NCBI GenBank assembly: GCA_964631745.1 | Contig: CAZVWV010000022.1 | Location: forward strand, 15,640-34,295 | Reading direction: 5' to 3' | Origin: an uncultured Bdellovibrionales bacterium | GTDB lineage: Bacteria; Bdellovibrionota_C; UBA2361; JBGSMV01 | Length of the DNA stretch: 18,656 bases | In this document: one piece after another, positions 1 through 18,556 of the stretch | Numbering within the stretch: position 1 is the stretch's first letter | How the letters are laid out: each line of letters opens with the position of its first letter | Made by a program: the position numbers and the translations under genes | Notes under the pieces: model-generated | Told to the model about the DNA's origin: nothing | Databases searched by the model: none | The model's input: the letters and a program-made list of their open reading frames with translations, nothing else

Positions 1-1
1 A

Positions 2-3188: not shown

Positions 3189-3377
3189 ATGGAGAAGATC
3201 GCACTACTCACCTGTCTGATATTGTTGGCCGTTACGGCCTGTACCCCTAAGGTCGAGCTCTCGACCTCGGATAAACCGATCACAATCAATATGAACTTAA
3301 AGATCGACCATGAGGTGCGAGTCAAGGTTGAGCGAGATCTTGATCAAGTTGTTGGGAAAGATAGTAAATTATTCTAG
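3189..3377 (+). CDS. ynbE: YnbE-family small lipoprotein
   Basis: MEKIALLTCLILLAVTAC lipobox, followed by the characteristic TPKVELSTSDKPITINMNLKIDHEVRVKVERDLDQV of YnbE. I take the ATG at 3189; the track's TTG at 3183 is less likely. Confidence 0.8.
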   Translation: MEKIALLTCLILLAVTACTPKVELSTSDKPITINMNLKIDHEVRVKVERDLDQVVGKDSKLF

Positions 3378-3388
3378 TGAGAAACAAG

Positions 3389-3742: not shown

Positions 3743-3958
3743 GAGCTGCCGCGCCGTTGACTTGGCGGCCGGTGTGCATAGTGGCACTGCTTTTCAGGGC
3801 GTGGCCACTACCGGCTCGCACCTGGTGCTGCCTGTCGGCCTAAAAATTAGTACAACTTTTTGGCATCGGCTGGCGCGGTCGCCTGCGCTAAATCTTATTA
3901 CTCGTTGCTGCATATTTCCCGGGCGTTCTCTATTTGAGAAGCCATACTCTTTCCATGG

Positions 3959-4809: not shown

Positions 4810-4864
4810 CAGGATGTTTATGAGCCAGGTAGCTATAATTGCCGTCGAATCAGCCATCCCCCAA

Positions 4865-4929
4865 TTGACCGATAAGTTCACTTATCGGTCAATATTAGAT
4901 GTTACTGCCGAAGTGAACTATCGGTCAAT
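4865..4929. promoter_or_regulatory. Operator-like repeats: a perfect 12-bp inverted repeat (TTGACCGATAAG-TTCA-CTTATCGGTCAA) plus a third half-site (AACTATCGGTCAAT)
   Basis: Palindrome at 4865-4892. A direct repeat of its right half lies at 4916-4929 (GTTCAC/GTGAAC, then TATCGGTCAAT). All lie 55-120 bp downstream of the promoter at 4781-4809. Confidence 0.35.
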
Positions 4930-4977
4930 TCAGGTATCTACTCCCTGCCGGAATCCCGATCACTCTCGCTATCTGGG

Positions 4978-5331
4978 TTAAAAATCATAGTCGTAAATTT
5001 GTCCAACGCTTCCGCGGCACGTGCCCTTCTTTCGGCCAGCCGCCTCTATACCTTCAGGATCAACTTTCCGCATATATTCCCAAACGACGAAGGGCGCAGA
5101 AGAAAGAACGCGAAAAATGAATGCGCCCATTTCGCGTATCTTGCGAATTGCCAAGGTAAAATTAAAGGATGGGATCCGTGCAAGGTATTTAAAACTGCCG
5201 TGCGACTTACTGATGCCGAACTGACCAGCGTTGTTCCCAGGATCGGCTTGCCTCTGAGCAATTCGAGTCGCTTCAAAAGGCGCCTTAATCAAGTTACCCT
5301 CCCCTACTTGAGAATCCACTGGTGCAAGCAC
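4978..5331 (-). CDS. Hypothetical ORF of uncertain coding status
   Basis: Longest ORF in the 4.6-5.5 kb gap. No family recognised. It overlaps plus-strand ORFs of similar length, so it may be non-coding remnant DNA. Confidence 0.15.
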   Translation of the reverse strand: MLAPVDSQVGEGNLIKAPFEATRIAQRQADPGNNAGQFGISKSHGSFKYLARIPSFNFTLAIRKIREMGAFIFRVLSSAPFVVWEYMRKVDPEGIEAAGRKKGTCRGSVGQIYDYDF

Positions 5332-5510
5332 CTCAAGCGGGCTTTTGGTTCCGGTCGGCCCACATTCCGCGACGTGAGTGTACCGATCTTTATTCCCCTT
5401 CCCAAATCGATTTGGATTGGGCTAGTACTTGTGGAGCCTTGGTCAAAACGCAGAAACCCATAGACTTTTTGCCAAACAACCCAAGCTTACAAATATGTTG
5501 AGATGGGCGG

Positions 5511-5609
5511 CATAACACCCGAATTCTCCCGTCAGCGGGGCGCGACCACTTTGGGTAATTTGGCTTGACTAAATGGCCCCGCTGCGGGAGATTCGGCAAC
5601 ACATTAGCT
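5511..5609 (+). repeat. attC-like site, family 1 copy A
   Basis: cATAACa ... CCGAaTTCTCCCGtCAGCGGGGC ... TTGACT ... GCCCCGCTGCGGGAGATTCGG ... cATTAGC. One of four ~95-bp copies (see 9575, 16385, 16779) that are about 80-90% identical. Imperfect dyad, with extra bases only in the 5' arm. Confidence 0.7.
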
Positions 5610-5629
5610 TGCTTGTATGTGATGGTATT

Positions 5630-6040
5630 ATGATGGCCCGAGACATTAGTAAAGTTTTTTGTATGACCGCAGCTCTTTCAAGCTTCGCGCTTGGAGTAAC
5701 CGGTTGTGATAACTTGAATCCTGGATCCGATCCTTCATTTTTGGGAAGAATAGGTACCGCTGACTTATATCTTAAGGAGATTGGCGGTAGGAGTTACTTA
5801 GTCGTAGACGACGATCCTGGCACTGCTTGCATAGAACATCACCCAAAATCAAAATTAGATAACATTGCCCACAGCTTTAGCAGTCAACTTGAGGGGAAGG
5901 CTGGCGACGTTGAGCTCTATACAGTTGAGGTCGATGGCACCAAATATCTTTTATCTCTAAACTACCTTACGAATCGCGGCCATGGATGTGATTTAATACT
6001 GATCCCAGAAGGGGCAAGTGGCGACACTCTCGCAAGATAA
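5630..6040 (+). CDS. Cassette-borne small lipoprotein, function unknown
   Basis: MMARDISKVFCMTAALSSFALGVTGC signal with lipobox. TAA stop at 6038-6040 is embedded in the GATAAC R'' box of the next attC. I take the ATG at 5630 because the track's ATG at 5573 lies inside attC-A. Confidence 0.5.
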   Translation: MMARDISKVFCMTAALSSFALGVTGCDNLNPGSDPSFLGRIGTADLYLKEIGGRSYLVVDDDPGTACIEHHPKSKLDNIAHSFSSQLEGKAGDVELYTVEVDGTKYLLSLNYLTNRGHGCDLILIPEGASGDTLAR

Positions 6041-6132
6041 CACCGGCCCGAAACTGACCGCGCCCCTTGAGTACTCGTGGCGCCATGATATTATATCTGG
6101 GGCGCGGCAGTTTTGGCCGCGAACCGTTATCC
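6035..6132 (+). repeat. attC-like site, family 4 copy a
   Basis: GATAACACCGGCCCGAAACTGACCGCGCCCC ... GGGGCGCGGCAGTTTTGGCCGCGAACCGTTATCC. About 85% identical to the copy at 9005-9101. Unpaired bases in the left arm. Confidence 0.65.
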
Positions 6133-6139
6133 ACTCATT

Positions 6140-6610
6140 ATGAACCAAACTAAAGCCGAGTATTACAAGAGCTTGCCGGCCAAGAGAATGGGCGCTGGCG
6201 TTCTTTTCTTTAATGATCAAAATGAACTCTTGCTCGTGCAACCAACCTACAAAGACACTTGGGAAATTCCAGGTGGCATTGTTGAACTAAGCGAATCACC
6301 GCGTGATGCAGTGCTCCGCGAAGTTCATGAGGAGCTAGGTTTAAAGATTGAACCTGAACTACTTAATTTTACATGCATTGAATATATGTCTGCGGGCAAA
6401 GAGATCTCGGAGTCCTTAATGTTTGTATTCTCGGGAGGGGTGCTTACTGAAAACATTATTAACCAGATTAACTTAGAATCTTCCGAACTCAAATCATTTA
6501 AGTTTGTTCCACCGAGTAGTATCACTGAATTTCTCGGACCAATTCTCGGGTCGAGAATCATAAAATGTCTTGAATCATCTAGTTGCTTTTACTCGGAAAA
6601 CAAATACTAG
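6140..6610 (+). CDS. NUDIX hydrolase
   Basis: Canonical Nudix box GGIVELSESPRDAVLREVHEELGL (Gx5Ex7REUxEExGU). I take the ATG at 6140 because the track's TTG at 6113 lies inside the attC. The TAG stop lies 5 nt before the next R''. Confidence 0.85.
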   Translation: MNQTKAEYYKSLPAKRMGAGVLFFNDQNELLLVQPTYKDTWEIPGGIVELSESPRDAVLREVHEELGLKIEPELLNFTCIEYMSAGKEISESLMFVFSGGVLTENIINQINLESSELKSFKFVPPSSITEFLGPILGSRIIKCLESSSCFYSENKY

Positions 6611-6613
6611 AGT

Positions 6614-6712
6614 GGATAACAAGCCGGTGCACTTGATGCGAAACTCTTGGCTTTTCCGGGTGTTTTGGGGCACTATTGGAGAGTTTCGCACAAGTGACCC
6701 TAAACTTTATCT
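6614..6712 (+). repeat. attC-like site, family 6
   Basis: GATAAC at 6615-6620. Arms GCACTTGaTGCGAAACTCTtGGC and GGAGAGTTTCGCACAAGTGA, with a ~26-nt loop. Variant R' is CTTTATC. Confidence 0.5.
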
Positions 6713-6721
6713 TCCTAACTT

Positions 6722-7276
6722 TTACTCACGCCCAAAACCGATCTTTCCCTTTCTCCCTCTCTGCATCGGTTCCTTCGGTTGAGCGTTAATTAACTCCCGA
6801 ATGCTATTGAACACCACTTTAAATTGGGCGTCATAACGCCGCTCTAGTTCGTCTAATCGTTTCGCGAACTCTTTGTTACTTGCTAGAATCTGCCGCATCC
6901 GGACAAACGCTCTGATGATCGCTATATTCACATGAATAGCTCTCTCACTATTCAAAACACTGGAAAGCATTGAAATTCCGTGCTCAGTGAACGCGTATGG
7001 CAGGTTTCGTCGGCCAGGCTTACCACTTGAGGTCACAATTTGTGACCGTAAAGCCGTGTATTCTTGGCTAGTTAGCTGAAACATGAAGTCCGCCGGGAAT
7101 CTTTCCACGTTTCGCTTTACAGCCTGTACCAGCGCCTTCGTTCTTACTTGGTAAAGTCTGGCTAGATCCTCGTCCAGCATTACCTTCTCACCTCTAATGA
7201 AGTAAATTGATTGCTCCAGCCGTTCAACAGGTATTACAGAACTGTTCTTTTTATTCATCGTTTCCCAAACTATCAT
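6722..7276 (-). CDS. ORF6N-domain (KilA-N-like / antirepressor-type DNA-binding) protein
   Basis: N-terminal IYFIRGEKVMLDEDLARLYQVRTKALVQAVKRNVERFPADFMFQLT is the ORF6N signature. The ORF is inverted within its cassette and sits next to the family-2 attC. Confidence 0.75.
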   Translation of the reverse strand: MIVWETMNKKNSSVIPVERLEQSIYFIRGEKVMLDEDLARLYQVRTKALVQAVKRNVERFPADFMFQLTSQEYTALRSQIVTSSGKPGRRNLPYAFTEHGISMLSSVLNSERAIHVNIAIIRAFVRMRQILASNKEFAKRLDELERRYDAQFKVVFNSIRELINAQPKEPMQRGRKGKIGFGRE

Positions 7277-7302
7277 GCCATTATCCGCTTAGACAACGCG
7301 GA

Positions 7303-7381
7303 AGATAACCATTGAATTCACGATATTTCGCGCTTTAGAATCAGTTTGGCGCGAAAATCGTGATTCAACAGAACGTTGGAC
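7303..7381 (+). repeat. attC-like site, family 2 copy a
   Basis: GATAACC ATTGAATTCACGATATTTCGCGC ... GGCGCGAAAATCGTGATTCAACA GAACGTTGGAC. The R' GTTGGAC is a perfect GTTRRRY. Confidence 0.65.
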
Positions 7382-7436
7382 TGAGCCGCGCAGTAGCGCG
7401 GAGGATCCTAAGCGAGAATTTGAATCGTAAGAGTAA

Positions 7437-7464
7437 GACCGGCACCGACCGGTCATTTTTTTTT
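7437..7464 (+). terminator. Rho-independent terminator at the 5' end of a cassette
   Basis: GACCGG-CACCGA-CCGGTC hairpin followed by a T9 run. It lies 60 nt after the cassette boundary within a conserved leader (7382-7465). A weaker copy lies at 14433-14515. Confidence 0.6.
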
Positions 7465-7645
7465 GCGAAAAGCGTGAGGATGTGTGCCGGTGGTTCAAGT
7501 CCCATCGCCGCCCCGACCGCCCGAACCTAGTGCCGAACCTAGTGTAGCTGAAAAGTAGAAAAGAATCTTGGCGAAAGTTCCATCCCTGATGGTGTAAAAG
7601 AGACCTGACTAAAGAAACTCATTTACAACCATCAGGGAGGAATTC

Positions 7646-8233
7646 ATGAACGATAAAAAAAGTACGCCACTTAGAGAGAAAATGAAAGCGGATTTAATGC
7701 TTCGGAATTATTCTAAGCCTTCTGAAGAGTTATATCTGTTTCATGTCAGGCGCTTTGCACAACACTATCACAAATCCCCAGGACATCTTGGACTAGACGA
7801 GATCCGGAGCTACCTGACGTACCTGCGCCAAGAAGCCAACGTATCGCAGTCATCGTATAAGCAAACGGTGGCAGCGCTCAAAGACGGCAACGTCTCTTTC
7901 TCCTACAAAGATTACAGAACTAACGAAAAGAAATTGATGACGCTGCCTGCTGTAGAGTTTATTCGGAGATTTCTGCTGCATGTGCTTCCAAACAAGTTCG
8001 TGAGGGTGCGCTACTACGGGTTCCTGACCAGGGCAAAGAAACTTGCCGCTCTGAGCACTATTAGAGAGGCGTTGGAGACCCATTCTCAAGCCCCGCCACC
8101 AAAACCTGCCACTACGCCCCATAGACACTGCTGCCCGGCCTGCAAGCTCGGGAAATTGGTCCACATTGGCCAAGTCCCACGCTGTTCGATTCCAGGCACT
8201 AGTCCACCAGCGCAACATACAGCCCTTTCTTAG
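7646..8233 (+). pseudogene. Degenerate chimeric ORF: tyrosine-recombinase (IntI/Xer-type) SAM-like N-terminal domain joined to the C-terminal segment of an IS91-family (Y2 HUH) transposase
   Basis: Residues 8-80 (LREKMKADLMLRNYSKPSEELYLFHVRRFAQHYH...VSQSSYKQTVAAL) fit the recombinase N-terminal SAM-like domain. Residues about 100-175 (EFIRRFLLHVLPNKFVRVRYYGFLTRAKK ... CCPACKLGKL) fit the Y2-transposase C-terminus with its terminal Zn motif. No catalytic domain sits between them. Confidence 0.45.
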
Positions 8234-8267
8234 CCAATCGCTCTTAGCTATACTAACTTCAATCGTT

Positions 8268-8394
8268 GGAGGCTGCGCGGCCCAGTCCAACGGGGTGTCG
8301 AGCCGCGATTCTCAGGCGAGAACGCTGCGGCAAGTTGGCACTCCTTGGCTGATAATCGCGGCCCAACACTAAACATTATCCCCTTTAGGCAGCC
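8268..8394 (+). repeat. attC-like site, family 3 copy 1; it has an extended outer palindrome
   Basis: GCGCGGCCCA GTCCAAC ... GAGCCGCGATTCTCAGGCGA ... GGCTGATAATCGCGGCCC AACACTAAACATTATCC. About 80% identical to 14966-15086. The 10 nt outside R'' are the reverse complement of the 10 nt that follow R' at the cassette start (7382-7391). Confidence 0.55.
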
Positions 8395-8663
8395 AGTTTT
8401 CTCTTGAGAACCTTAATCTCATTTTCAATCTGTTCAAGTCTCGAGGCAGCCGTCACTTTATCCGACATGCTTTCACTCAGAGTCCTGTTAATTAGCCGCT
8501 GATAAGGAATTCCACTCTCATCAGCCATAGCTCTTAGCTTTGCAAGAGTTTCGGCATTGATATTGATTGTAATTTTTATGCTCTTCTGGCGAGCCATCGC
8601 AGAACGTATTCGCTTGGTTTCAGCCCTATCGATTTTAAGATTTTTTAGGTTTGGTTTTTTCAT
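8385..8663 (-). CDS. brnA: BrnA antitoxin (CopG/RHH-type)
   Basis: MKKPNLKNLKIDRAETKRIRSAMARQKSIKITININAETLAKLRAMADESGIPYQRLIN. Starts at the internal Met of the track ORF and overlaps the end of brnT by about 29 nt. Confidence 0.7.
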   Translation of the reverse strand: MKKPNLKNLKIDRAETKRIRSAMARQKSIKITININAETLAKLRAMADESGIPYQRLINRTLSESMSDKVTAASRLEQIENEIKVLKRKLAA

Positions 8664-8922
8664 TGTATATTCTCCTAAACTCTCGCCATTCGGCCGACCC
8701 ATAAATTCGTACTTTTCCTTCTCGCCTTGTAAACCGAGTCGTAAGTATCTTCCCCGAACTCGATCTCCCCAACCAATAAAAACGCTCCTCATCCTGAGAA
8801 TGCTTATCATCTCTGATGGCAAATCCATCAGGATCGGAAAAAGACTCCGCGGCTTCGGAAAAACTCACCTTGTGCTTCCTAAGGTTTTCTTTAGCTTTGC
8901 CGGCGTCCCACTCGAAATCCAT
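8635..8922 (-). CDS. brnT: BrnT toxin (DUF497 ribonuclease family)
   Basis: MDFEWDAGKAKENLRKHKVSFSEAAESFSDP...DDKHSQDEERFYWLGRSSSGKILTTRFTRREGKVRIYGSAEW matches the BrnT pattern (FEWD..K...N..KHGVSF.EA, HS..EERF). The toxin lies upstream of the antitoxin, as in BrnTA. Confidence 0.8.
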   Translation of the reverse strand: MDFEWDAGKAKENLRKHKVSFSEAAESFSDPDGFAIRDDKHSQDEERFYWLGRSSSGKILTTRFTRREGKVRIYGSAEWREFRRIYNEKTKPKKS

Positions 8923-9004
8923 ATAAGCATGATTACCATACCTATGTGTATTTTACCATATAAACTGTAAGTTGGTGAAGATTTATTTTTTGGTTCCACG
9001 CAGG

Positions 9005-9101
9005 GGATAACACCGACCTTAAACTGACCGCGCCCATTGATTAGGGTTGCCAGTATGGTACCATTATGGGGCGCGGCAGTTTAGGCCGCAAAACGTTAGG
9101 C
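9005..9101 (+). repeat. attC-like site, family 4 copy b
   Basis: GATAACACCGACCTTAAACTGACCGCGCCC ... GGGGCGCGGCAGTTTAGGCCGCAAAACGTTAGGC. Perfect R' GTTAGGC. Extra T and A in the left arm. Confidence 0.7.
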
Positions 9102-9120
9102 AGCCTACGGAGAGAAACTT

Positions 9121-9580
9121 ATGCGAATGGTCCTGGACGAGAATTTCAAAATATCCATCGAGGGACGGAATGATTTCGATGGACGAATCCTATTTCTGAG
9201 CAAGAACTCTGGAATTGCGAGGATTGGCAACAAGGGCTGGGATTTTCGCGATGCAATTTTAGGCAGTGGTGAGGATTTTGCCATCGAGCTAATGGCGAAT
9301 GGGCAAGCAGCAGCTACCTTATCGTTTGAAAGAAATTCAGGCCATTCGATCGCGGTCCCTAGAAAGGGCGATAAAAATTGAGAATTTTCAATTGAACCTC
9401 GACCCAAACACTGAAGAGTGGATTCTTGAAAGTAAACAACACAAGCATGGATTCGGACAGCGAATTGGTTCTCGGATCGTCCTTAACATTAACGACGAGC
9501 ATTTAGTTCAGGAAATGGCGGAGGTAGTGGCGTTGAGTTTTATTGCTATTCAAGGCTGGGGCGGAATGAAGGCTGCCTAA
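9121..9580 (+). pseudogene. Unknown cassette gene apparently split by a +1 frameshift at an A5 run
   Basis: ORFs 9121..9381 and 9299..9580 are in frames 1 and 2. They overlap around GGGCGATAAAAATTGAG (about 9368-9375). Joined they give a protein of about 152 aa. The TAA stop at 9578-9580 is embedded in the CCTAAC R'' box. Confidence 0.45.
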
Positions 9581-9675
9581 CATCCGAGTGCTCCCGACAG
9601 CGGGGCCGCGGTCTGCTTTAGTAGTTTGTATTGACTTGAAGGCCCCGCTGCGGGAGATTCGGCATCACGTTGGAC
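9575..9675 (+). repeat. attC-like site, family 1 copy B
   Basis: GCCTAAC at 9575-9581 is a perfect RYYYAAC. CCGAGTgCTCCCGACAGCGGGGCCGCG ... TTGACTTGAAGGCCCCGCTGCGGGAGATTCGGCATCAC GTTGGAC. Perfect R' at 9669-9675. Confidence 0.8.
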
Positions 9676-9750
9676 TGCAAGTATTTTTGATTAGGAAGTC
9701 TGCCCATGATACACTTTTTATTATTAATTTAACATAATAGAGGTATTATT

Positions 9751-10134
9751 ATGAACTCACCACAAATGGAGTTTGCAGGAAATATCGGCGGATTACAAAA
9801 CTTTCTTAGCCAGTGTTCATCGGCAGCTTTGGCGATGGCAATACAACCAGAAATAACAAAAATTATGCAAAATCAATCCTTGGATTCCAATGCACCTTTA
9901 ACAGTGGATCTACTAAACACCTTGAGGCAGAGCTTATACAGTCGAAATGACGATCCAGATGCAAGACAAACAGATATTTTAATGATACTGGCCGATGCCT
10001 TGCGTGGAAAGGGCGTTTCGTCAGGGAATCCTATCGAAGATAGACTGCGTTTTGTAGAAATACTTCAAGATCAATTACAACGAAACGGCAGAGTCAATTT
10101 TCAGAGAGCACTCGCAGAGTCTATAGCAAGATAG
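9751..10134 (+). CDS. Hypothetical cassette protein (127 aa)
   Basis: ATG preceded by a GAGG-like Shine-Dalgarno within an AT-rich leader. No family recognised. Followed by a candidate attC at 10148-10235. Confidence 0.4.
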   Translation: MNSPQMEFAGNIGGLQNFLSQCSSAALAMAIQPEITKIMQNQSLDSNAPLTVDLLNTLRQSLYSRNDDPDARQTDILMILADALRGKGVSSGNPIEDRLRFVEILQDQLQRNGRVNFQRALAESIAR

Positions 10135-10147
10135 TGCAGGCTAACAA

Positions 10148-10235
10148 GTGGGCGCACTGGAGGCAAAATCCTGGGGCTTTCTTAGGAATTTTGTGACTGT
10201 TATGATGATTTTGCCCCAGTGGTTCTAAACGTTAA
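10148..10235 (+). repeat. Candidate attC-like site, family 9
   Basis: GGCTAAC ... GCGCACTGGaGGC / GCCCCAGTGGTTC imperfect dyad, with one extra A in the left arm. R' is AAACGTTAACC. Confidence 0.4.
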
Positions 10236-10256
10236 CCCCTTTTAGCAGTAATACCC
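10235..10256 (+). repeat. 22-bp direct copy of the tip of the Tn3-family IRR (ACCCCTTTTAGCAGTAATACCC)
   Basis: Identical to 12822-12843 and in the same orientation. It starts 5 nt after a cassette boundary and 13 nt before the tnpA ATG. Confidence 0.5.
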
Positions 10257-10268
10257 CTCCTTGACCAA

Positions 10269-12743
10269 TTGATGGAACCAAATGACGCGAGTTCGGCGAA
10301 GCTCACACGGTATCAGCTTACGCTCATGAAGAAATTCGCTCACTCCATTGCGCCATCTGCAATAAAGGAAAATGTCGAGCAGCTTGTAGCGCTGCGTGAA
10401 CTTTACCTTGAGATTCGAGCAGTATTAGAAGAGCTTGATCTTACCCGCGAAGGCATTCGTTACTTTGCGACCTACGTTTTAAAATCGCCTACTTGGAGGC
10501 TTTCTGCAAGAGAGGACCATGACCGATACTTGCACATGATAACTTTTGTTGCTCATCAGTACTATCAACTTCAAGATATCCTTGTCGATGTTTTGCTCAG
10601 CTCTGTAACGGCAATTAACAACGGCGCACGTCGTGAGCACAAAGATGGTTGCTACGAACAGCGGTCTCAAAAAAATAGCTCCCTTGCAAATGTGATTGAA
10701 ACAGTTGAGAAACTTCTCTCTGGCTATGCTGAGATTCACGATATCTTGCACAAAAAGGGACTACACTCGGATAAAAAAATAGAGCTTATCAAGGCTCTAC
10801 TTGATGAAAATGAAGCTGCTATCCGTAACGCCAGAAAGCATGTCATTAACCTCAAACAGGCATCTCAGCAGGTGGTTGAGAATGATTTCTACGCAATTCT
10901 GGAATCAAAGTCGGTCAAACTTCAAAATAGAGTCGCAGGGATTGTAAAAACGCTTGAGTTTAGATCTGACTGCTCTGATAAGCTGCTCTACAGCGCCATA
11001 TGTCACTATAGAGAGCACGCTACCCTCACTGAATCTGCACCATACGATTTCTTAAGTCCGGTTGAGCAGAATCTCTTGCACAGAGACGGTGGAAAGTTTC
11101 GAGTTCCGCTCTATAAAGTGCTGCTCTTTGGAAGAATCGCTGAAGCAATTCGGGCCGGGACCCTTAACTTAGACCACTCATACAAGTATCGCACTTTAGA
11201 AGAGTATCTAATCGCGCGGTGCGCTTGGGATGAGGGAAAAGATGTCCTCATAGAGCGCGCAAGCCTCCAAGTTGTTGAGAACTGTCCTAAAGTGCTTACC
11301 GATCTTCAAACCCGCCTAGCGCAATATTATCAGCTTACAAATCAGCGAATTTTAGATGGCGGCAATGAATTTGTTTCGGTCAAAAGTACCGGCGCTTATA
11401 CCGTGCAAACCCCGCCAGTAGCCGAGAAGATGGCTCCTGGCCTGCCTGAGTACTTTCCAGAGACTAAATTTATTTCTCTGCTTGAAATCCTTTCCACAAC
11501 CAATCAAGTAACAAATTTTCTAGCAGAATTTAAACGCTCAAAATTAAAGTATAATCGCGCACGACCAAGCGATCGGTCCTTTTTTGCCGGTTTACTCGGA
11601 TTTGGGTGCGGCATCGGTATAAAAAGAATCGCTCAAATCTCAAACCTCATCGACGAAGATGAGCTTGAAAGAACCGTAAACTGGCATTTTTCTTTAGATA
11701 ATGTTGAAGCTGCCAACGATAGAATTTTAGCCTTCATGGATAAGCTTGATCTCCCCTCGGTTTATCTCCAAGACCCAGAGTGGCGGCACACCTCAAGTGA
11801 CGGCCAAAAGGTAGAGGTGGCCGTGCCTTCGCTTAATGCCAATTACTCGTTTAAATATTTCGGCCAAGGTAAGGGCGTGAGCGTCTATAGCTTCATTGAT
11901 GAGAGACATTTTCTCTTTCACTCAACGGTAATTAGCTCAGCGGAACGGGAGGCCGCATATGTAATCGACGGCTTGATGCACAATGATGTTGTACAGAGCG
12001 ATATTCATTCAACTGATACTCACGGCTATACTGAAGTAATATTTGGCGCGACGCATCTTTTGGGATTCATGTTCGCCCCTCGAATCAAGAGTTTAGGGCG
12101 ACAACACCTCTATACCTTTCCTGGCAATACAAAAAAGCTGTACAAAGAAATGAAATACCCTATCCTGCCAGATGGCGTTATCAACATTCAATTAATCGCA
12201 GATAACTGGGATGAAATTCTGCGATTCGTGGCTACCATCAAACTAAAAGAAACCCCTGCTTCGCAGCTATTTAGACGACTTAACTCATACTCAAAATCGC
12301 ACCCTTTATGGGACGCTCTCAAAGAGTTTGGAAAAATTATAAAATCGATTTTCATCCTTCACTACATCGACGATCTCAATCTTCGCCAGGCAGTTGAGAA
12401 GCAGATGAACAAGATCGAAAGTGCTCAGAAGTTTTCAAACGCCGTGGCGTTCGGATCACAAGAATTTAGGCAGGCAGACCGAGAGGAGCAAAATATTGTC
12501 GCTGCTTGTCGCAGGCTTATTAAGAACGCCATCATCTGTTGGAACTACCTATACCTTTCGCAAAAAATTGTAGATGCGCCGAGCCCAGCGCAGAAAAATG
12601 AAATTATTGATGCCGTTCAAAACGGCTCAGTGGTCGCATGGCGGCACATTAATTTCTACGGGGAGTATGATTTCTCAGATGAAAAGCTCAGGGATTCTGT
12701 TGGAATTACTGCCCCTTCGGTTAGGAGTCTTAGAGTGGCTTGA
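10269..12743 (+). mobile_element. tnpA: Tn3-family transposase TnpA, N-terminally truncated relative to full-length (~1000 aa) TnpA
   Basis: 824 aa. Family motifs: RYLHMITFVAHQYYQLQDILVDVLL; SSDGQKVEV; HSTDTHGYTEVIFGATHLLGFMFAPRIKSLGRQHLYTF (DDE region). The first ~170 aa, the N-terminal DNA-binding region, are absent. No resolvase or res site nearby. Confidence 0.85.
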
Positions 12744-12805
12744 AATTCAAAAATGGGAGGGTCGTTTTTGAGTTAAGTTGCTGATCTGGCATAAGAATTC
12801 GGAAA

Positions 12806-12843
12806 TTCTGTGGCGGTTTTCACCCCTTTTAGCAGTAATACCC
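12806..12843 (-). mobile_element. Tn3-family 38-bp terminal inverted repeat (IRR)
   Basis: Read from the tip it is GGGTATTACTGCTAAAAGGGGTGAAAACCGCCACAGAA. It shares GGG at the tip, GCT at 11-13 and GAAAAC at 23-28 with the Tn3 IR (GGGGTCTGACGCTCAGTGGAACGAAAACTCACGTTAAG). It lies 63 bp past the tnpA stop. Confidence 0.55.
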
Positions 12844-12968
12844 AACGTTCGCTAGCGCAGCTTCTTTGCTTTTCAGTACGCTCGAAAGCATCGCTACTCC
12901 CTGTTCCGAGAAGGAGTACGGAGGAGTCCTACGGCCGCCCCAAGATCTTGATATGCCAAATTGGCATT

Positions 12969-13172
12969 TCAAGTCGGCAAGTTCTTGATTTGACAGCCGA
13001 AACATAAAATCCCCGGGAATCGATCTTTGTTTCGCCTAACCGCACGATTTAAATGCCCCGTTTCGACACAATAGAGTTCAGCCAAATCGGAATCTAGCAT
13101 CACGCGCTGCCCTCTGATCAGATAAATCAGGCTAGAAATCTCTTTTTTGATAACTGCGCTGGTTTTTGGCAT
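12969..13172 (-). pseudogene. Truncated ORF6N-domain gene; paralog of 6722..7276
   Basis: [38 protein letters not shown] aligns to ORF6N copy 1 up to 'RFP', then diverges and terminates at 67 aa. Its family-2 attC is retained upstream. Confidence 0.6.
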
Positions 13173-13233
13173 ATATATGTGAGTTTACCTTTAGTCAATG
13201 GAGGCGCCAAGGTCATATTGCAACAACGGTGCT

Positions 13234-13330
13234 GGCTAACAATTGAATTCACGAGATTTCGCGCCACTACCTTTAGTAGTTGCTTTGACATCCAGTTGGC
13301 GCGAAACTCCTGATTCAACATCACATTATG
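13234..13330 (+). repeat. attC-like site, family 2 copy b
   Basis: GGCTAAC AATTGAATTCACGAGATTTCGCGCC ... GGCGCGAAACTCCTGATTCAACA TCACATTATG. Variant R' is CATTATG. Confidence 0.6.
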
Positions 13331-13362
13331 CGCCCGCTCCACTGCTCATAAATTTAGCTGTT

Positions 13363-13725
13363 ATGCTTAATTCCACCTCACGAAAAAATCTAGGTAAAAT
13401 ATTCTTATGTTTGGTCATTATTTGGGTGGCAAAAGAAGGATATGAGTGGACTCGTTGTTTCTGCAGTACGGCAACGGATACGCGGGTGCTGATTGCGCAG
13501 TGCACCGAAGTTAAAAGAGAACTTCAACTTTATAAAGACAAACATGGTGCTTGGCCTAGGTCCTTGTTCGATGCGGGTATTTGGCCCATTAGCTATTTTG
13601 GAATTTGGCGTTATCGCCCGTCCTCCCTAGATTTTGATGGCCCAATGTTGGAAATTGGTTGCAGCGGCTGGCATATAGTAGGAACCTCGCCTGATGAAAA
13701 TGGTGATTGCGGAGCTTGGGATTGA
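13363..13725 (+). CDS. Hypothetical small protein with one N-terminal TM helix (weak pseudopilin-like motif)
   Basis: IFLCLVIIWVA hydrophobic helix; AQCTEVKRELQLYKDKHGAWPRSL loosely resembles a GspG/pilin segment. I take the ATG at 13363 because the track's start lies inside the attC. No Shine-Dalgarno. Confidence 0.35.
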   Translation: MLNSTSRKNLGKIFLCLVIIWVAKEGYEWTRCFCSTATDTRVLIAQCTEVKRELQLYKDKHGAWPRSLFDAGIWPISYFGIWRYRPSSLDFDGPMLEIGCSGWHIVGTSPDENGDCGAWD

Positions 13726-13732
13726 GTGCTCG

Positions 13733-13832
13733 CATAACCACCGCGTTGAAGGGAAACGCGACTCGCGAGCGGATTTCGAAATTTTAAGCGTTTGAGTGGG
13801 GCGCGTCCCCATCAGGCGGCAACCCATTATGC
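13733..13832 (+). repeat. attC-like site, family 8
   Basis: GCATAACC ... TGAAGGGAAACGCGaCtCgCG / GAGTGGGGCGCGTCCCCATCA imperfect dyad. Variant R' CATTATGCGC, the same 10-mer as at 13323-13332. Confidence 0.45.
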
Positions 13833-13833
13833 G

Positions 13834-14043
13834 CTAGCGCTTCCTGAGCTTGTTAGGATCTCGGCGGCAGTGGAAAACTGATACGACCACGATATGTTCG
13901 GTTTCTATCGAGAAAAATACCCCGAAGGGAAACTTTTTTAGCAAACATCGGCGAAGATCGTCGAAAGCAACTGAATATAACATAGGAGTTCTTGCAATCT
14001 TTGCCAAAGCAACATCAAGCGACCGAATAAATTCCGATCCCAA
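13834..14043 (-). CDS. ParE/RelE-family toxin, short (possibly N-terminally truncated)
   Basis: ...DDLRRCLLKKFPFGVFFSIETEHIVVVSVFHCRRDPNK matches the ParE C-terminal core. The ORF begins at TTG with an in-frame stop just upstream. It leaves an 80-bp gap to the antitoxin and lacks the usual ~25-aa N-terminal helix. Confidence 0.6.
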   Translation of the reverse strand: MGSEFIRSLDVALAKIARTPMLYSVAFDDLRRCLLKKFPFGVFFSIETEHIVVVSVFHCRRDPNKLRKR

Positions 14044-14123
14044 ACCATGTGCTTGCGTTTCCTACCAACGCGCAGCGGCTTCTAGTTCAGCAGAAGCCTT
14101 TTGGGTAAATCTAATTTCCACAA

Positions 14124-14345
14124 TTAAAGGCTGATTTTCTGCTTGAGATCCGACCATGAAATGCCGGTATCGGGGTCTCTCCTATAATGCGCAAGTCTAG
14201 CGCGCAATTCCACTTTTTGGTCTTCGCTGAGCTCAAGTGAATCTGGGAGCTGCTCTATGCTGTCCCAAATATCCTGAACAAGTTGAATTCGCTCTGAAAC
14301 GCTTAAGCCAAGAATCTCTTCTAGAAGTTCCTTTTCTTTGGGCAT
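14124..14345 (-). CDS. Antitoxin, 'putative addiction module component' (TIGR02574-like), partner of the ParE-like toxin
   Basis: LSVSERIQLVQDIWDSIEQLPDSLELSEDQKVELRARLAHYRRDPDTGISWSDLKQKI fits the LSxEERLxLIxxLWDSL...AxLDRRLAxYxxDP pattern of this antitoxin family. Located upstream of the toxin. Confidence 0.65.
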   Translation of the reverse strand: MPKEKELLEEILGLSVSERIQLVQDIWDSIEQLPDSLELSEDQKVELRARLAHYRRDPDTGISWSDLKQKISL

Positions 14346-14364
14346 CTGAGTATTGTATAGCTAA

Positions 14365-14432
14365 GCGCATAACAACGCAATCAATAGACATTTTGCTTCG
14401 CAAAATGCTATTGATTGCGCGATACGTTGGAC
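14365..14432 (+). repeat. Short attC-like site (~68 bp), family 7
   Basis: GCATAAC AACGCAATCAATAGaCATTTTGC ttcg GCAAAATGCTATTGATTGCGCGAT ACGTTGGAC. Perfect R' GTTGGAC. Extra base in the left arm. Confidence 0.7.
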
Positions 14433-14515
14433 TGAGCCGCGCTGGCGCGCGGAGGGGTGTAATTGAAACATTTATGGTTGAATTGGAATGATTCGTAAGA
14501 GACGGTCATTTTTTG
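14433..14515 (+). repeat. Conserved cassette-start leader (second copy) with CCGCGC-N4-GCGCGG hairpin and a degenerate terminator
   Basis: TGAGCCGCGCTGGCGCGCGGAGG...GAATTGGAATGATTCGTAAGAGACGGTCATTTTTTG, against 7382-7465 TGAGCCGCGCAGTAGCGCGGAGG...GAATTTGAATCGTAAGAGTAAGACCGGCACCGACCGGTCATTTTTTTTT. Confidence 0.6.
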
Positions 14516-14965
14516 TATACGAGATTAGGTGAAACGCCACTTCATGGCGCTGAAGGCGTCTTGCCTGACTTTTAATTGCGAATAGCGAGAAGCCTACTAA
14601 TTTCACTTGATATCTTTTGAAGAGCTGGCAGCATTGCTTCCCAAAAAGAGAAGCGGGCCTGTCGCGACTGCTTACTTACGTGCAGTCAGGAATGGAGATT
14701 CCTTTTTTACCGCCAGGGATGGCGGCGCCGCTTTAGACATAAACTGAGAGCGCGAATTGTGCTCAGACTCGGTGGGTAGGCCGAAGGCTTTTTGAAAGAA
14801 AAGCTATATTTCTTGGGGTGGGTTGTGCCTAATTGCAAAACTGAGAGATTTTTTATTACGTTAAATCAAATAGTTATTACTCTCCACATAAAAAACGCTG
14901 ACCAATCCCCATAGGCATAATCAGGCGTTGATTAACTATCTGGTTCCTTCAATAATCAAACCATT

Positions 14966-15086
14966 GTAGGCAGCGCGGCACAGTCCAACCGGGTGTCGAG
15001 CCGCGCTTCTCAGGCGAAGTTGCGGCACTGACTTCTCCCGTTTTGGCTGAGAACCGCGGCCCAACACTAAACATTAGGCAGACAGA
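14966..15086 (+). repeat. attC-like site, family 3 copy 2
   Basis: GCGCGGCACA GTCCAAC CGGGTGTCGAGCCGCGCTTCTCAGGCGA ... GGCTGAGAACCGCGGCCC AACACTAAACATTAGGCAG. Confidence 0.55.
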
Positions 15087-15091
15087 GCATT

Positions 15092-15883
15092 ATGCGTTGC
15101 GATTTTCCTATCCTTGAATACGATTCGGACCAGACAGCCCGTATCGAACCCACTGCTGTAGTGCCGGATGGCACGCTGCCTGAGATATGTATCATCTCGT
15201 TTTTCGCCGATGCTATTGAAAGGTTCGTCTCCAACGCCAACGCGACTGTGGCCTGTCGTTTTGACACGATGATAAGCTCGCATCCCGTCTATGAATTCTC
15301 CTACAAGGAGCGGCGGTTGGCCCTACTGCCAGCCGGGCTCGGTGGACCCCTTTCTGTTGGTCTTCTCGAGCACGCTATTGCTATGGGCTCGCGGTATTTT
15401 GTGGTGTGTGGCGCAGCGGGTGTTCTCAACAAAGAGATTGCAGCGGGACACCTGATTTTGCCAACAGCGGCGATACGGGATGAAGGAACGTCGTACCACT
15501 ACCTCCCGCCAGCTCGCGAAGTTGTGCCAAGTGCCGCAGCAGTAGCGGCTATTGGGAAAGTACTTGAAGATGCTAATATCCCGGTCGTTCGCGGAAAAAC
15601 ATGGACCACGGATGCATACTTTCGGGAAACGCGACGTAAGATTGAGTTGCGCCAGTCCGAGGACTGTATTTGTGTCGAAATGGAGGCGGCTGCCCTGTTT
15701 TCCGTCGCGGTGTTTCGCGGGGTTGATCTCGGCTATATCCTTTACGGAGGAGATTCCGTTGCCGGTGTTTGGGACCCACGAGAAGAGTTTGACCGTGCTG
15801 TGGTTCGCGAGAGGCTGATTCGCCTTTCCTGCGAAGCATGCTGTTTACTAGCCGATCAAACAAACGTTCTGAGGCATAAGTGA
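15092..15883 (+). CDS. Nucleoside phosphorylase-I family protein (PNP/UDP/MTAN-type phosphorylase domain)
   Basis: VEMEAAALFSVA matches the family's VEMEAAA[IL] active-site motif. The upstream segment LALLPAGLGGPLSVGLLEHAIAMGSRYFVVCGAAGVL...ILPTAAIRDEGTSYHY aligns with the DeoD/MTAN substrate-binding core. The ATG lies inside CATTATGCG. Confidence 0.7.
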   Translation: MRCDFPILEYDSDQTARIEPTAVVPDGTLPEICIISFFADAIERFVSNANATVACRFDTMISSHPVYEFSYKERRLALLPAGLGGPLSVGLLEHAIAMGSRYFVVCGAAGVLNKEIAAGHLILPTAAIRDEGTSYHYLPPAREVVPSAAAVAAIGKVLEDANIPVVRGKTWTTDAYFRETRRKIELRQSEDCICVEMEAAALFSVAVFRGVDLGYILYGGDSVAGVWDPREEFDRAVVRERLIRLSCEACCLLADQTNVLRHK

Positions 15884-15888
15884 GGGCT

Positions 15889-15983
15889 GCCTAACAATTG
15901 GAGCGAGCGGAGGAAAGGCCGCGAATGAAATTGATGATTTGTAGATTTGAAGTGGCCTTTCCCCGCTCCTCCTCGCCATTATC
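15889..15983 (+). repeat. attC-like site, family 5
   Basis: GCCTAAC (perfect RYYYAAC) AATTGGAGCGAGCGGaGGAAAGGCC ... GGCCTTTCCCCGCTCCTCCTCGC CATTATC. Confidence 0.55.
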
Positions 15984-16012
15984 CCGCCCTTTCGTTTGCA
16001 ACTTGTAATTTA

Positions 16013-16390
16013 ATGAATCAGGCCTTAACCCCCTATAGAGATGTCTTTCTGCGGTTGTTGAATGCTCTCCTGTTTCTGAGCTTAGTGGGTTTTCATGTCA
16101 TGCCAAAGTTATCGCTTATTATTATCGGCAATCAGCAACCTTCCGTTTTTCACATCGTCGCATTCGTAGTTTCAATTACGTCGGGATGTATTGCAGCGAA
16201 GTGGATAATAAAGCGGTTCTCCTTTGTTGAGCATTTAATTGTTTCATTTTGCCTTCTCCCACTTACAATTTGTGTGGCGGTAAGTTTACGGGAGGGTTTA
16301 ATATGGATTCTTATATTAGCTCTTTTCTCGCTTTTTAGTTATCTTCCTTACCGAAGAATCCAAAAAACAAGACCACCAAGCGCGGGATAA
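16013..16390 (+). CDS. Small integral membrane protein (about 4 TM helices), unknown function
   Basis: 125 aa with four hydrophobic segments. The TAA stop at 16388-16390 is embedded in the GATAAC R'' of attC-C. I take the ATG at 16013 because the track's start lies inside the preceding attC. Confidence 0.45.
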   Translation: MNQALTPYRDVFLRLLNALLFLSLVGFHVMPKLSLIIIGNQQPSVFHIVAFVVSITSGCIAAKWIIKRFSFVEHLIVSFCLLPLTICVAVSLREGLIWILILALFSLFSYLPYRRIQKTRPPSAG

Positions 16391-16485
16391 CCACCGAGTA
16401 CTCCCGATAGCGAGGCCGCGTTCTGCTTTGGTAATTTGAGTTGACTTGGAGGCCCCGCTGCGGGAGACTCGGCAAAACGTTAACC
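16385..16485 (+). repeat. attC-like site, family 1 copy C
   Basis: GATAACCA CCGAGTaCTCCCGAtAGCGaGGCCGCG ... TTGACTTGGAGGCCCCGCTGCGGGAGACTCGGCAAAAC GTTAACC. Confidence 0.75.
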
Positions 16486-16507
16486 CTCATTTAAAAATTC
16501 ATAGCAG

Positions 16508-16777
16508 ATGGGTATTGCAACCACTCTAATTATCTACGTCGCGCTCTTTCTCGTCATACGCCAGTCAGTTTTTATTATTGGCGAGAATCAGCGCGGAGTA
16601 ATTGTCCGGCTAGGGCGTTTCGAAAGAATTCATTATCCCGGGTTGCTTATTGTGGTTCCTTTCATGGACCGGGTTCACAAGATAGACTTGCCTGCACAAG
16701 TACCTGGTTGGGAGAAACTTTCTAAGGAGCAGCTTGATGCTAAGGTTCAGGAAATTGCTTTGAGCAAGATAGAATGA
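16508..16777 (+). CDS. SPFH/band-7 domain N-terminal fragment (89 aa)
   Basis: TM helix, then IIGENQRGVIVRLGRFERIHYPGLLIVVPFMDRVHKIDL, the start of the SPFH (stomatin/HflK/C) fold. Far shorter than functional SPFH proteins. The TGA stop lies 2 nt before the R'' of attC-D. Confidence 0.55.
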   Translation: MGIATTLIIYVALFLVIRQSVFIIGENQRGVIVRLGRFERIHYPGLLIVVPFMDRVHKIDLPAQVPGWEKLSKEQLDAKVQEIALSKIE

Positions 16778-16778
16778 G

Positions 16779-16879
16779 GGTTAACCACCGAGTTCTCCCG
16801 ACAGCAGGGCCACGATCATTAGTGGTAGTTCGAATTGACTAAGAAGCCCCGCTGCGGGAGACTCGGCAAAACGTTATGT
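16779..16879 (+). repeat. attC-like site, family 1 copy D (last attC of the array)
   Basis: GGTTAACCA CCGAGTtCTCCCGACAGCaGGGCCaCG ... TTGACTAAGAAGCCCCGCTGCGGGAGACTCGGCAAAAC GTTATGT. The R' overlaps the pepD stop codon. Confidence 0.75.
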
Positions 16880-18556
16880 GCGCTGACAAAGCTCACCTAG
16901 AAGTCCGACCAATCCGTTGAGGAAAGGCGGTACTGAACGCAACACCACACATTCGCGTAAGCCGTGAGCCCCAAGAATGGTGGGGCCTCTAGAATCTATC
17001 TCAAGCTCTGGATAAGCAGCTCTGGGAAAAGCAAACTCTAACCCACAGTGAGCTCCCTTGACGCGGGCCGGTTGGCCGCTATGAAGTTTTCCATGAGCAC
17101 GTTGAGCTATTTCAAGCAAAGAGCTGGATTCCCGCGGAGGTGACAATGGATATGTCTTTCCAAACTCAAATCTAAATTCACTATTTCGTAGTTCCGTTAG
17201 TATCGGCTCTTGCACTGACTCAATGCCTCCAGGTCGGTTGGATCGAGTCATGGTGAGCAGATTTACAGCATCATTCGTAGTTGAACTCAGGCTCCATGTA
17301 TTACTAGTAGCAACAAAGTCTTCGACTCCGTCCGGCAAAAATGCGGGAATTTCTGAGGCTCGCTCAATCACTCCATCAGCCATCGAACTTACGAGGTTCT
17401 GAAGTTTCCGCAAGAATCCAGAATCCATCACAGGGGGGAAAACAGGCTTTTTACTATCTTCGACTATTTCCACCTGAACAGAAATGTCATCTCCCTCGAG
17501 CTGTCTCGTTTGACGAGAAAGAGCTCGTTTTACTTGAGCACAAAAATCAGTGGCTTTTCCTTTATGACACCAAACGACCAAGGTAGCATCTGTGGGAATT
17601 GAACTTCGGCCAAGCCCTCCTTGTAGCGAAGCAAATCGAATTCCCTCGATATCAACGCCGTCTCCCAATGCTTCAAATAGAATCTTCTGCGCGTTGCCAT
17701 GGCCTTTATCAACATCCAAGCCACTGTGACCACCTTTCAAGCCAGTAAGAGATATATTAACAGGAACTTCATTTTCCGAACGCTCGTCACGAGACACGGG
17801 GAGTGTTATTTTTAAGTCTCTCCCTCCAGCTGCACTTATGAAGATGCCTTCTTCCTCCATGTCGAGATTGATCCAATATCTGCGCTGTACATCAGGATCT
17901 GATACGGTGCGAAGAAGGCCATAATCTAGTCCCTTTATGCCTTGCATGTCGCCCTCTTCGTCAGAGGTGAAGACAATTTCCAACGGCGGATGATCTATTC
18001 CCGGGGTCTGAAGCACAGCAAGAATGGCGCTCAGTGACAGATTGTTATCAGCCCCTAATGATCCTTCCTGTGCATATAGTACCCTCTCGCGCCTGCCTCG
18101 CTCAATCTCCCTGGACTCTACTGCTAATGTTCGCTTACAGCCAGCGTCAAAACCTTCGTAGCGCATATCAACAATGTCCATATGAACCTGTAAAACACTT
18201 GGGTCAGCGCCAACTCCACTCCCTCTTCCATCTGCATATAGAATCGCGTTGCCGACTTTGTCGATCTTCATCTGTCGAACCGGTATCAATCCGAGGGAGC
18301 CATCGTTGTAGTGCGGAAAAGCTAGCTGGGCGACATACTCTCGAACATGCCTTTCGTGACCTGACCTTCTGTCTAGTTGGCTGAGCGAGGCGAAGTGCGC
18401 AAACGTGGTCGTGCAAAGTTTCGTCGGGCAAAATGGCAGTAACTCTGCGGCCAATTGTCCGGTAAGAAGAGGGGATTCGGCCATCTGCTGAGCCAATTGC
18501 TGAGCTTGAGTGAATGAGGGCAGTTCTAGTCCAGGCAAATTGAATCCTCCGCGCAA
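16874..18556 (-). CDS. pepD: Aminoacyl-histidine (Xaa-His) dipeptidase PepD, M20 family
   Basis: VLQVHMDIV, LGADNNLSLSAILAVL...PLEIVFTSDEEGDMQG, LKGGHSGLDVDKGHGNA and HCGLEFAFP...YPELE...GPTILGAHGLRE align along the whole length with E. coli PepD motifs. Confidence 0.85.
   Translation of the reverse strand: MRGGFNLPGLELPSFTQAQQLAQQMAESPLLTGQLAAELLPFCPTKLCTTTFAHFASLSQLDRRSGHERHVREYVAQLAFPHYNDGSLGLIPVRQMKIDKVGNAILYADGRGSGVGADPSVLQVHMDIVDMRYEGFDAGCKRTLAVESREIERGRRERVLYAQEGSLGADNNLSLSAILAVLQTPGIDHPPLEIVFTSDEEGDMQGIKGLDYGLLRTVSDPDVQRRYWINLDMEEEGIFISAAGGRDLKITLPVSRDERSENEVPVNISLTGLKGGHSGLDVDKGHGNAQKILFEALGDGVDIEGIRFASLQGGLGRSSIPTDATLVVWCHKGKATDFCAQVKRALSRQTRQLEGDDISVQVEIVEDSKKPVFPPVMDSGFLRKLQNLVSSMADGVIERASEIPAFLPDGVEDFVATSNTWSLSSTTNDAVNLLTMTRSNRPGGIESVQEPILTELRNSEFRFEFGKTYPLSPPRESSSLLEIAQRAHGKLHSGQPARVKGAHCGLEFAFPRAAYPELEIDSRGPTILGAHGLRECVVLRSVPPFLNGLVGLLGELCQRT

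Follow-up and report, generated by a model that had tools for sequence, protein, structure and literature searches.

What kind of element is a run of fifteen structured repeats, all in the same orientation and separated by small genes, when no intact integrase gene accompanies it, and how would it have come to be in this state? The question is raised by an 18,656-nucleotide stretch of DNA from an uncultured Bdellovibrionales bacterium (GenBank assembly GCA_964631745.1, contig CAZVWV010000022.1, positions 15,640 to 34,295 of the forward strand), hereafter the window, in which an earlier note made from the sequence alone had recognized an integron-type gene-cassette array with 15 same-orientation attC sites and no integrase. 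This proposal is borne out by the core triplets of the repeats, their folding, the complementarity between neighboring sites (cassette closure), covariance models and the breakpoints of mobile units, and the locus is very probably an integron cassette array without an intact adjacent integrase. As such it is an already well-known kind of element, either a decaying group of clustered attC sites that lacks an integron-integrase (CALIN) or an integrase-deleted chromosomal integron.

The array comprises 15 attC sites, all on the plus strand and numbered here A1 to A15 from left to right, which span positions 5510-16879 and, with their boxes fixed by script, bound 14 complete cassettes. The right end agrees with that of the earlier note, whereas the left end lies one base further left than the 5511 given there. 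The attC sites measure 66-101 nt rather than the 68-127 bp previously claimed, and the largest gap from one attC to the next is 3.0 kb. Thirteen of the 14 cassettes (394-1000 bp) fit the expected units of 0.4-1.0 kb, but the remaining one (10232-13325) has a Tn3-family transposase inside and reaches 3094 bp. R'' ends in AAC and positions 2 and 3 of R' are TT in all 15 sites. The individual boxes quoted earlier (GTTGGAC three times, GTTAGGC, and GTTAACC twice) are all correct, as are the TAA codons embedded in TAAC at 6038-6040, 9578-9580 and 16388-16390; the general form GTTRRRY proposed for the 3' box holds for the TT of every site but not for the initial G, which is replaced in seven sites (by A in six and by T in one). 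An unsupervised structural scan, which required AAC...TT 45-135 nt apart together with complementary arms and otherwise left both boxes unspecified, returned the same 15 plus-strand sites. It also returned one extra match at 171-230, which was discarded since its folding (z-score +0.4) is no better than that of shuffled sequence.

A circular cassette is cut at N|TT, so that the last six bases of an R' belong to the next cassette and are complementary to the R'' of that cassette. Such closure is evident in the array: the R'' of each site and the R' of the preceding site are complementary at 52 of 56 variable positions, compared with only 30 of 60 within sites, and none of 100,000 permutations attained the observed value. 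The sole clear exception is cassette 7 (9670-10231, between A7 and A8), which starts with TTGGAC while the R'' of its attC reads GGCTAAC (closure 2/4), and which may be a fusion of two cassettes or the result of mutation.

Folded as single-stranded DNA and compared with dinucleotide shuffles, the bottom strand reaches z <= -3.4 in 13 of the 15 sites, the exceptions being A8 (-1.9) and A10 (-0.4). The earlier note had placed extra-helical bases in the 5' arm only. In most sites, pure single-base bulges are indeed found on the 3' arm of the bottom strand, which is the R''-L'' arm, but A5 and A12 have none, and in a few sites both arms contain internal mismatches. As the 15 sites aligned too poorly in MAFFT to be modelled directly, a covariance model (R1) was bootstrapped from one attC family, with A1, A7, A14 and A15 only as its training set. 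R1 recovered nine of the 11 remaining sites end to end at the script coordinates (23-47 bits, E <= 1.5e-5), preferred the bottom strand (100-116 bits) to the top strand (17-24 bits), and found nothing else in the window below E 0.2. In the resulting alignment 95% of the cells pair, compared with 62% after column shuffles and 35-48% when the partner was slid, and two bulge columns are preserved; compensatory changes occur in 20 of 21 stem pairs, a figure that leans toward structure because the alignment was fitted to the model.

A second model (R2), trained on 12 sites of the window, was run on four annotated class 1 integrons representing 52 kb of plasmid DNA, and its best matches were the attC sites adjoining aadA2, dfrA14, aac(6')-IIc, lnu(F), aac(6')-Ib and arr-3, all on the expected strand. 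No Rfam family was detected in the window at the gathering threshold or at E <= 1, Rfam itself containing no family for attC. Neither the structural scan (with the 171-230 match excluded) nor R1 detected attC copies in the 7.3 kb of DNA flanking the array, and a 21-mer of the largest attC family had no match in GTDB representative genomes. Four matches of this 21-mer in metagenome contigs from JGI were rejected as chance occurrences in high-GC contigs, as they lie in coding sequence (L005 and L006) or have no attC-like partner arm (L007 and L008).

Comparison with other assemblies provides a further line of evidence. Two of the cassettes, encoding an ORF6N-domain protein and the BrnT/BrnA pair, were found in four other assemblies with differing neighbors. 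Two ENA assemblies (ERZ23795167 and ERZ22157947, contigs L009 and L010) contain the ORF6N cassette (6707-7375) at 96-98% identity, which starts exactly at TTATCT; the attC upstream of this point is a different one in both contigs and is part of a 64-nt mini-cassette. For the BrnT/BrnA cassette (8376-9095), three ENA assemblies give 91% identity, and its neighbors there differ on both sides; the identity begins at TTATCC and stops directly after the G of its R', where the sequence reads GTT|AGGC here, GTT|ATGC in contig L011 and GTT|GAAC in contigs L012 and L013. Breakpoints at N|TT are what integrase-mediated cassette exchange would predict, and not what models based on repetitive extragenic palindromes (REPs), miniature inverted-repeat transposable elements (MITEs) or terminators would. 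Cassettes of this array, or copies very close to them, have been exchanged between related arrays present in other environmental samples. A megablast search of the array against plasmids gave no match.

The mini-cassette of L009 and L010 (TTCTGC...GCAGAAC...G) consists of little beyond an attC site. Both ends of contig L009 carry an identical 55-mer, as expected if the mini-cassette lay on both sides of the ORF6N cassette or if the sequence were circular.

Several known systems may be compared with this locus. CALINs, as Cury et al. (2016) call attC arrays without an adjacent integrase, are common and well described; only about 6.6% of them have more than 10 sites, and an intI pseudogene is found near about 5% (PMC4889954). 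Like them, the present array combines two or more attC sites, spaced by less than 4 kb on one strand, with the absence of an intact intI from the window, holds mostly cassettes of unknown function and toxin-antitoxin (TA) pairs but no resistance genes, and contains debris of insertion sequences and transposons. Unlike most of them, which are smaller, it has 15 sites, and it further differs in a probable integrase remnant and in a host lineage without close database relatives. With sedentary chromosomal integrons, such as the Vibrio cholerae superintegron, it shares a location between housekeeping-like chromosomal genes, many unknown cassettes, inverted TA cassettes and the presence of attC families (up to 84% identical); however, no functional intI is identifiable in the window, an attI or Pc promoter is not apparent, there are only 15 sites, and these are more heterogeneous (mean pairwise identity 60%) than the highly uniform V. 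cholerae repeats (VCRs). The attC sites of class 1 integrons (59-base elements) have the same R''-spacer-L''...L'-spacer-R' organization, bulges on the R''-L'' arm and a G|TT crossover, and six annotated ones are detected by the model built from the window. By contrast, the sites of the array are mostly longer (96-101 nt) and have A or T at R' position 1 in seven of 15 cases, and the array has no sequence similarity to known cassettes or plasmids. Elements that lodge in arrays, including IS1111-attC elements, group IIC-attC introns and ISCR1 beside class 1 integrons, are paralleled by the transposable-element remnants inside this array, one of them a fragment of a Tn3-family transposase and the other an IS91-family element to which an accessory Xer-like recombinase belongs. 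A complete integron has an intact intI within about 4 kb, and none is present in the window; the clustering of same-strand attC sites (at least two) with no integron integrase nearby, as found here, is what characterizes a CALIN.

The element is otherwise ordinary and requires no new mechanism; if anything in it might surprise a specialist, it is the non-G first base of R'. As a fairly large and clearly documented array from a divergent host, it extends the known host range of integrons and the cassette pool, and it may be a natural example of integrase loss by deletion, which is a proposed route to CALINs.

With Pfam, NCBIfam and tblastn (IntI1 as query), no intact tyrosine recombinase was detected anywhere in the window, including the 5.5 kb left of the array and the 1.8 kb right of it. 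The absence of an integrase noted earlier therefore holds for an intact gene but needs to be qualified, as a short IntI-like C-terminal remnant probably lies to the left of the first attC. This candidate remnant of an intI-like tyrosine recombinase (5308-5415, minus strand), recognized by tblastn and frame translation 130-200 nt left of A1, has the strand and side expected of intI. IntI1 residues 312-336 match positions 5382-5308 of the minus strand with 48% identity (30.8 bits, E 0.001), a score that was given by none of 1000 locally shuffled windows, and an approximate V. cholerae IntIA query matches the same place with 23.5 bits. The frame opens after a stop at about 5422, continues to 4978 and reads ...NRFGKGNKDRYTHVAECGPTGTKSPLEVL..., in which a GKGxKDR motif is followed by YTHV, containing the catalytic tyrosine, and then by the G..G..SPL..L tail of integron integrases.

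A number of observations weigh against the view of the locus as an integron array that has lost its integrase. The remnant is very short and finds no support in NCBIfam, Pfam, PDB sequences, 1.84 billion representative proteins or a word-indexed protein database, the only matches being the protein itself and one spurious repeat protein. IS91-associated Xer-like integrases have a ...SP.D.L tail, one from Paraburkholderia ending in ...SPFDLL with the same spacing, and an IS91-type recombinase is a possible alternative source of the remnant. The integrase search covers 18.7 kb of a 34.3-kb contig, and a more distant integrase is possible. In addition, A5 and A12 are scored by neither covariance model and have no extrahelical bases, and seven of the 15 R' boxes do not have the canonical G, a change that, when present in one partner only, goes with a loss of recombination in class 1 integrons (PMC2811028). 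As for the remnant itself, it is identical to IntI1 at 11 of 22 positions and to the IS91-associated integrase from Paraburkholderia at 6 of 22. We lean toward regarding it as a genuine recombinase remnant and, if it is genuine, it would probably derive from intI.

The recombinase found beside BrnTA in L012 and L013 was considered as the missing integron integrase and rejected, as members of its family are located immediately upstream of IS91 transposases and the part of it that matches the integron-integrase model ends before the IntI-specific region.

On the reading that we prefer, each unit would once have been a circular gene cassette, and an integron integrase would have inserted these cassettes by cutting the folded bottom strand at 5'-AA|C-3' (N|TT on the top strand). 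Because only an integrase-like remnant is left and the 5' end of the first cassette has been lost, the most likely history is that one or more deletions took away the greater part of intI together with attI and the beginning of the first cassette, so that about 25-35 residues of integrase-like sequence would survive at the left edge, next to a first cassette without its 5' end. Consistent with a deletion, no N|TTATGC start for the cassette that ends with A1 is present in the 936 bp that separate this site from the bPH gene. The loss of the integrase by deletion, leaving this remnant behind, nevertheless falls slightly short of what we would call probable.

Among the alternatives, the one that survives best holds that the array is an active reservoir served in trans by an integrase elsewhere in the genome, and that the A or T at R' position 1 reflects a relaxation of the GTT triplet that this lineage tolerates, and not decay; we consider it doubtful. 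R' position 1 is G in eight of the 15 sites, A in six and T in one (non-G bases at 5603, 6706, 8375, 13325, 13826, 15073 and 15978), and it is the sole core position that varies, the remaining five core bases (AAC and TT) being intact in every site; the base preceding R' is C throughout. An active reservoir would accord with this restricted variation, with the cassettes held in common with other arrays at exact junctions, and with the fact that A-type sites flank junctions that must be recombination products. The A-type sites have probably taken part in recombination themselves, because the paralogues A5 and A12 (84% identical) both carry A in different contexts and A4, the attC of the ORF6N cassette, has G at this position where its counterpart in L009 has A. 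Pairing of the A variants with the unchanged R'' gives a G.T wobble in the folded bottom strand rather than a mismatch (CG 7 and UG 4 among the pairs of the covariance model). On the other hand, many cassette genes are pseudogenized or truncated, there are two transposon remnants, and all six G-to-A changes at R' position 1 are CpG-to-TpG transitions on the bottom, recombining strand, which simple mutational decay could explain; deamination of the bottom strand while it is extruded, or selection, might account for their asymmetry between the strands. Furthermore, a change of R' position 1 in one partner only is strongly deleterious in class 1 integrons, lowering recombination 10^3- to 10^4-fold, as measured with constructs in which both complementary positions were altered (PMC2811028).

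It seems rather unlikely that the crossover triplet of this lineage is RTT instead of GTT, with AA|T bottom strands still recombined by means of the G.T wobble. If this were true, the seven non-G sites would be functional variants and not products of decay, representing a natural relaxation of the one base that, according to class 1 experiments, has to match between partners; they might bias the choice of strand or partner, and an integrase elsewhere in the genome would still shuffle the array. The recurrence of A at R' position 1 with the other core bases intact is a testable lead on the strictness of the cleavage site beyond class 1 integrons.

Both atypical sites, A5 and A12, possess the R'' and R' boxes and a stem of 20 bp; their junctions are fully validated, and they contain no bulges. 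Both junctions of A5 pass closure, and the downstream one is corroborated by the breakpoint of identity with L011. The cassettes that end with these sites, 4 and 11 (7376-8381 and 14427-15079 with their complete attC), have in common only their first approximately 26 nt (a TTGGACTGAGCCGCGC..GCGCGG hairpin) and last approximately 125 nt, with a 19-nt inverted repeat formed by their ends, by which the R box is extended. Here as well as in L012 and L013, an IS91-like element starts directly at the cassette boundary, and in the latter two contigs the equivalent cassette start is where an Xer-like recombinase of the IS91-associated type, apparently intact, begins. Cassettes 4 and 11, together with positions 1-700 of L012, may represent an IS91-like element that uses or mimics cassette ends.

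The preferred reading includes decay of the array, which is indicated by the truncation of the Tn3 transposase and of the Band_7 and ParE genes, by an IS91 remnant and by the frameshift in one ORF6N gene. The Tn3-family transposase (10269-12743, in cassette 8) is 5'-truncated, with about 183 N-terminal residues missing (NF033527 positions 184-953 of 954). Its insert has a single GGGG-ended terminal sequence (12806-12826, minus strand) with no second inverted copy, and is bracketed by 25-nt direct repeats at 10232-10256 and 12819-12843, the usual Tn3 target duplication of 5 bp being far shorter. The second ORF6N gene (12829-13172) is split into two open reading frames (ORFs) that match the two halves of PF10543, and the ParE match (13834-14043) covers profile positions 28-89 of 89 only.

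It is also conceivable, but in our judgment improbable, that the array never had an adjacent integrase, and that an integrase from elsewhere inserted the first cassette at a secondary site of the attG type, G|TTATGT at the stop codon of the right-hand dipeptidase gene, after which the resulting hybrid attC accepted further cassettes. The last R' of the array, GTTATGT in A15, consists of chromosomal sequence, and its TTA is the complement of the TAA stop codon of the dipeptidase (16874-16876), so that the crossover point lies immediately outside a gene that has remained intact. This sequence also fits the GWT consensus of genomic insertions (bioRxiv 10.1101/2022.09.11.507474), and most CALINs have no recognizable intI pseudogene (PMC4889954). 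However, on the expected strand an IntI-like C-terminal match adjoins the first attC, an N|TTATGC start is missing from the first cassette, which is expected of a deletion and not of a clean insertion junction, and CALINs formed in this manner are thought to be mostly small (bioRxiv 10.1101/2022.09.11.507474), compared with the 15 sites present here. The right end by itself is compatible with an old chromosomal array that ends there naturally as well as with insertion at a secondary G|WT site.

The notion that the repeats are ordinary intergenic palindromes (REPs, bacterial interspersed mosaic elements or MITE-like sequences) or terminators unrelated to integrons is effectively refuted, since, although they are imperfect palindromes between genes and some lie closely 3' of stop codons, REPs and terminators show no complementarity of the 5' box to the 3' box of the previous copy, do not bound units that move as blocks with N|TT breakpoints, and are not recognized together with class 1 attC sites by one covariance model, and the 7.3 kb of flanking DNA holds no further copies.

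Regarding the individual sites, all on the plus strand, boxes are given below as R''/R', z refers to the bottom-strand DNA fold against dinucleotide shuffles, and bit scores are those of R1 unless stated otherwise. A1 (5510-5609; GCATAAC/ATTAGCT; z -4.9; 109.5 bits as a member of the training set) ends the 5'-truncated first cassette. It is followed by A2 (6035-6132; AGATAAC/GTTATCC; z -4.4; 34.1 bits, outside the training set) and by A3 (6614-6712; GGATAAC/TTTATCT; z -4.1; 25.5 bits), the site with T at R' position 1, where the junction after this T is corroborated by the breakpoint of identity with both L009 and L010. A4 (7303-7381; AGATAAC/GTTGGAC) has z -5.3 and 38.8 bits, whereas the atypical A5 (8285-8381; GTCCAAC/ATTATCC), with its 20-bp stem and zero bulges, has z -4.0 and 5.7 bits. 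Next come A6 (9005-9101; GGATAAC/GTTAGGC; z -3.9; 42.7 bits), A7 (9575-9675; GCCTAAC/GTTGGAC; z -4.2), which was a training member, and A8 (10139-10237; GGCTAAC/GTTAACC; z -1.9), which scores 22.9 bits with R1 and 48.5 bits with R2 and was used to train neither. A9 (13234-13331; GGCTAAC/ATTATGC) has z -4.6 and 46.7 bits. A10 (13732-13832; GCATAAC/ATTATGC) folds weakly (z -0.4) but scores 37.4 bits from outside the training set and shows closure 4/4 on both sides. The shortest site, A11 (14367-14432; GCATAAC/GTTGGAC; 66 nt), has z -6.0 and 31.4 bits, and the atypical A12 (14983-15079; GTCCAAC/ATTAGGC; z -3.4), missed by the covariance models, shows closure 4/4 on both sides. The last three sites are A13 (15889-15984; GCCTAAC/ATTATCC; z -3.6; 27 bits) and the training members A14 (16385-16485; GGATAAC/GTTAACC; z -3.4) and A15 (16779-16879; GGTTAAC/GTTATGT; z -5.4), the latter closing the array.

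The cassette content, assigned by Pfam and NCBIfam, is typical of integrons, with single small ORFs that stop at or within R'', TA pairs in inverted orientation and numerous unknowns, and no resistance gene was found among the cassettes. The forward-oriented cassettes encode a NUDIX hydrolase, a PNP_UDP_1 protein, a Band_7 fragment and five ORFs of unknown function. The NUDIX hydrolase is in cassette 2 (6127-6706; ORF to 6610; PF00293, E 1.6e-18), the phosphorylase-family protein with a PNP_UDP_1 domain (15092-15883) in cassette 12 (15074-15978), and the SPFH/Band_7 fragment (16508-16777; profile positions 1-49 of 176) in cassette 14 (16480-16873). ORFs of unknown function are carried by cassette 1 (5604-6126; ending at 6040, with its TAA inside the R'' of A2), cassette 6 (9096-9669; two overlapping ORFs at 9121-9381 and 9299-9580), cassette 7 (9670-10231; ORF 9751-10134), cassette 9 (13326-13826; ending at 13725) and cassette 13 (15979-16479; ending at 16390, with its TAA inside the R'' of A14). 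Cassette 4 (7376-8375) holds the IS91-family remnant, an ORF at 7646-8233 (PF13495 and PF04986) in which an Xer/IntI-like SAM-domain N-terminus is fused to the last approximately 100 residues of an IS91 transposase (NF033538 positions 252-354 of 356). The inverted cassettes contain two ORF6N genes, one of them frameshifted, and two TA pairs. They are cassette 3 (6707-7375), with an ORF6N-domain protein at 6722-7276 on the minus strand; cassette 5 (8376-9095), with BrnT/BrnA; cassette 8 (10232-13325, 3094 bp), with the frameshifted ORF6N gene at 12829-13172 on the minus strand and the Tn3-family insert; and cassette 10 (13827-14426), with a ParE-like toxin (partial match) and an Unstab_antitox antitoxin. 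Cassette 11 (14427-15073, 647 bp) contains no ORF of at least 50 amino acids and has no Rfam match.

The genes on either side are those named in the earlier note: Pfam identifies YdbH, YnbE, DUF1318 (the family meant by the ydbL label) and bPH_2 on the left, and an M20 dipeptidase (pepD-like) on the right. The G+C content is 46% in the array, 50% in the left flank (1-4573), 49% in the right flank and 47% in the 936-bp interval between the bPH gene and A1. The dipeptidase and the YdbH-like protein have best non-self matches of about 30% identity among approximately 5.8 billion protein clusters, and a search of GTDB genomes with the dipeptidase found no relatives. Judging by these flanks (1-4573 and 16874-18556), the host is a deeply divergent bacterium. 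Short Logan contigs of the same population have the same gene order. Between the bPH gene and the integrase-like remnant, at 4856-4937, a TTGACCGATA-type motif occurs three times and gives rise to a strong palindromic structure (DNA fold z -6.0), which looks like an operator.

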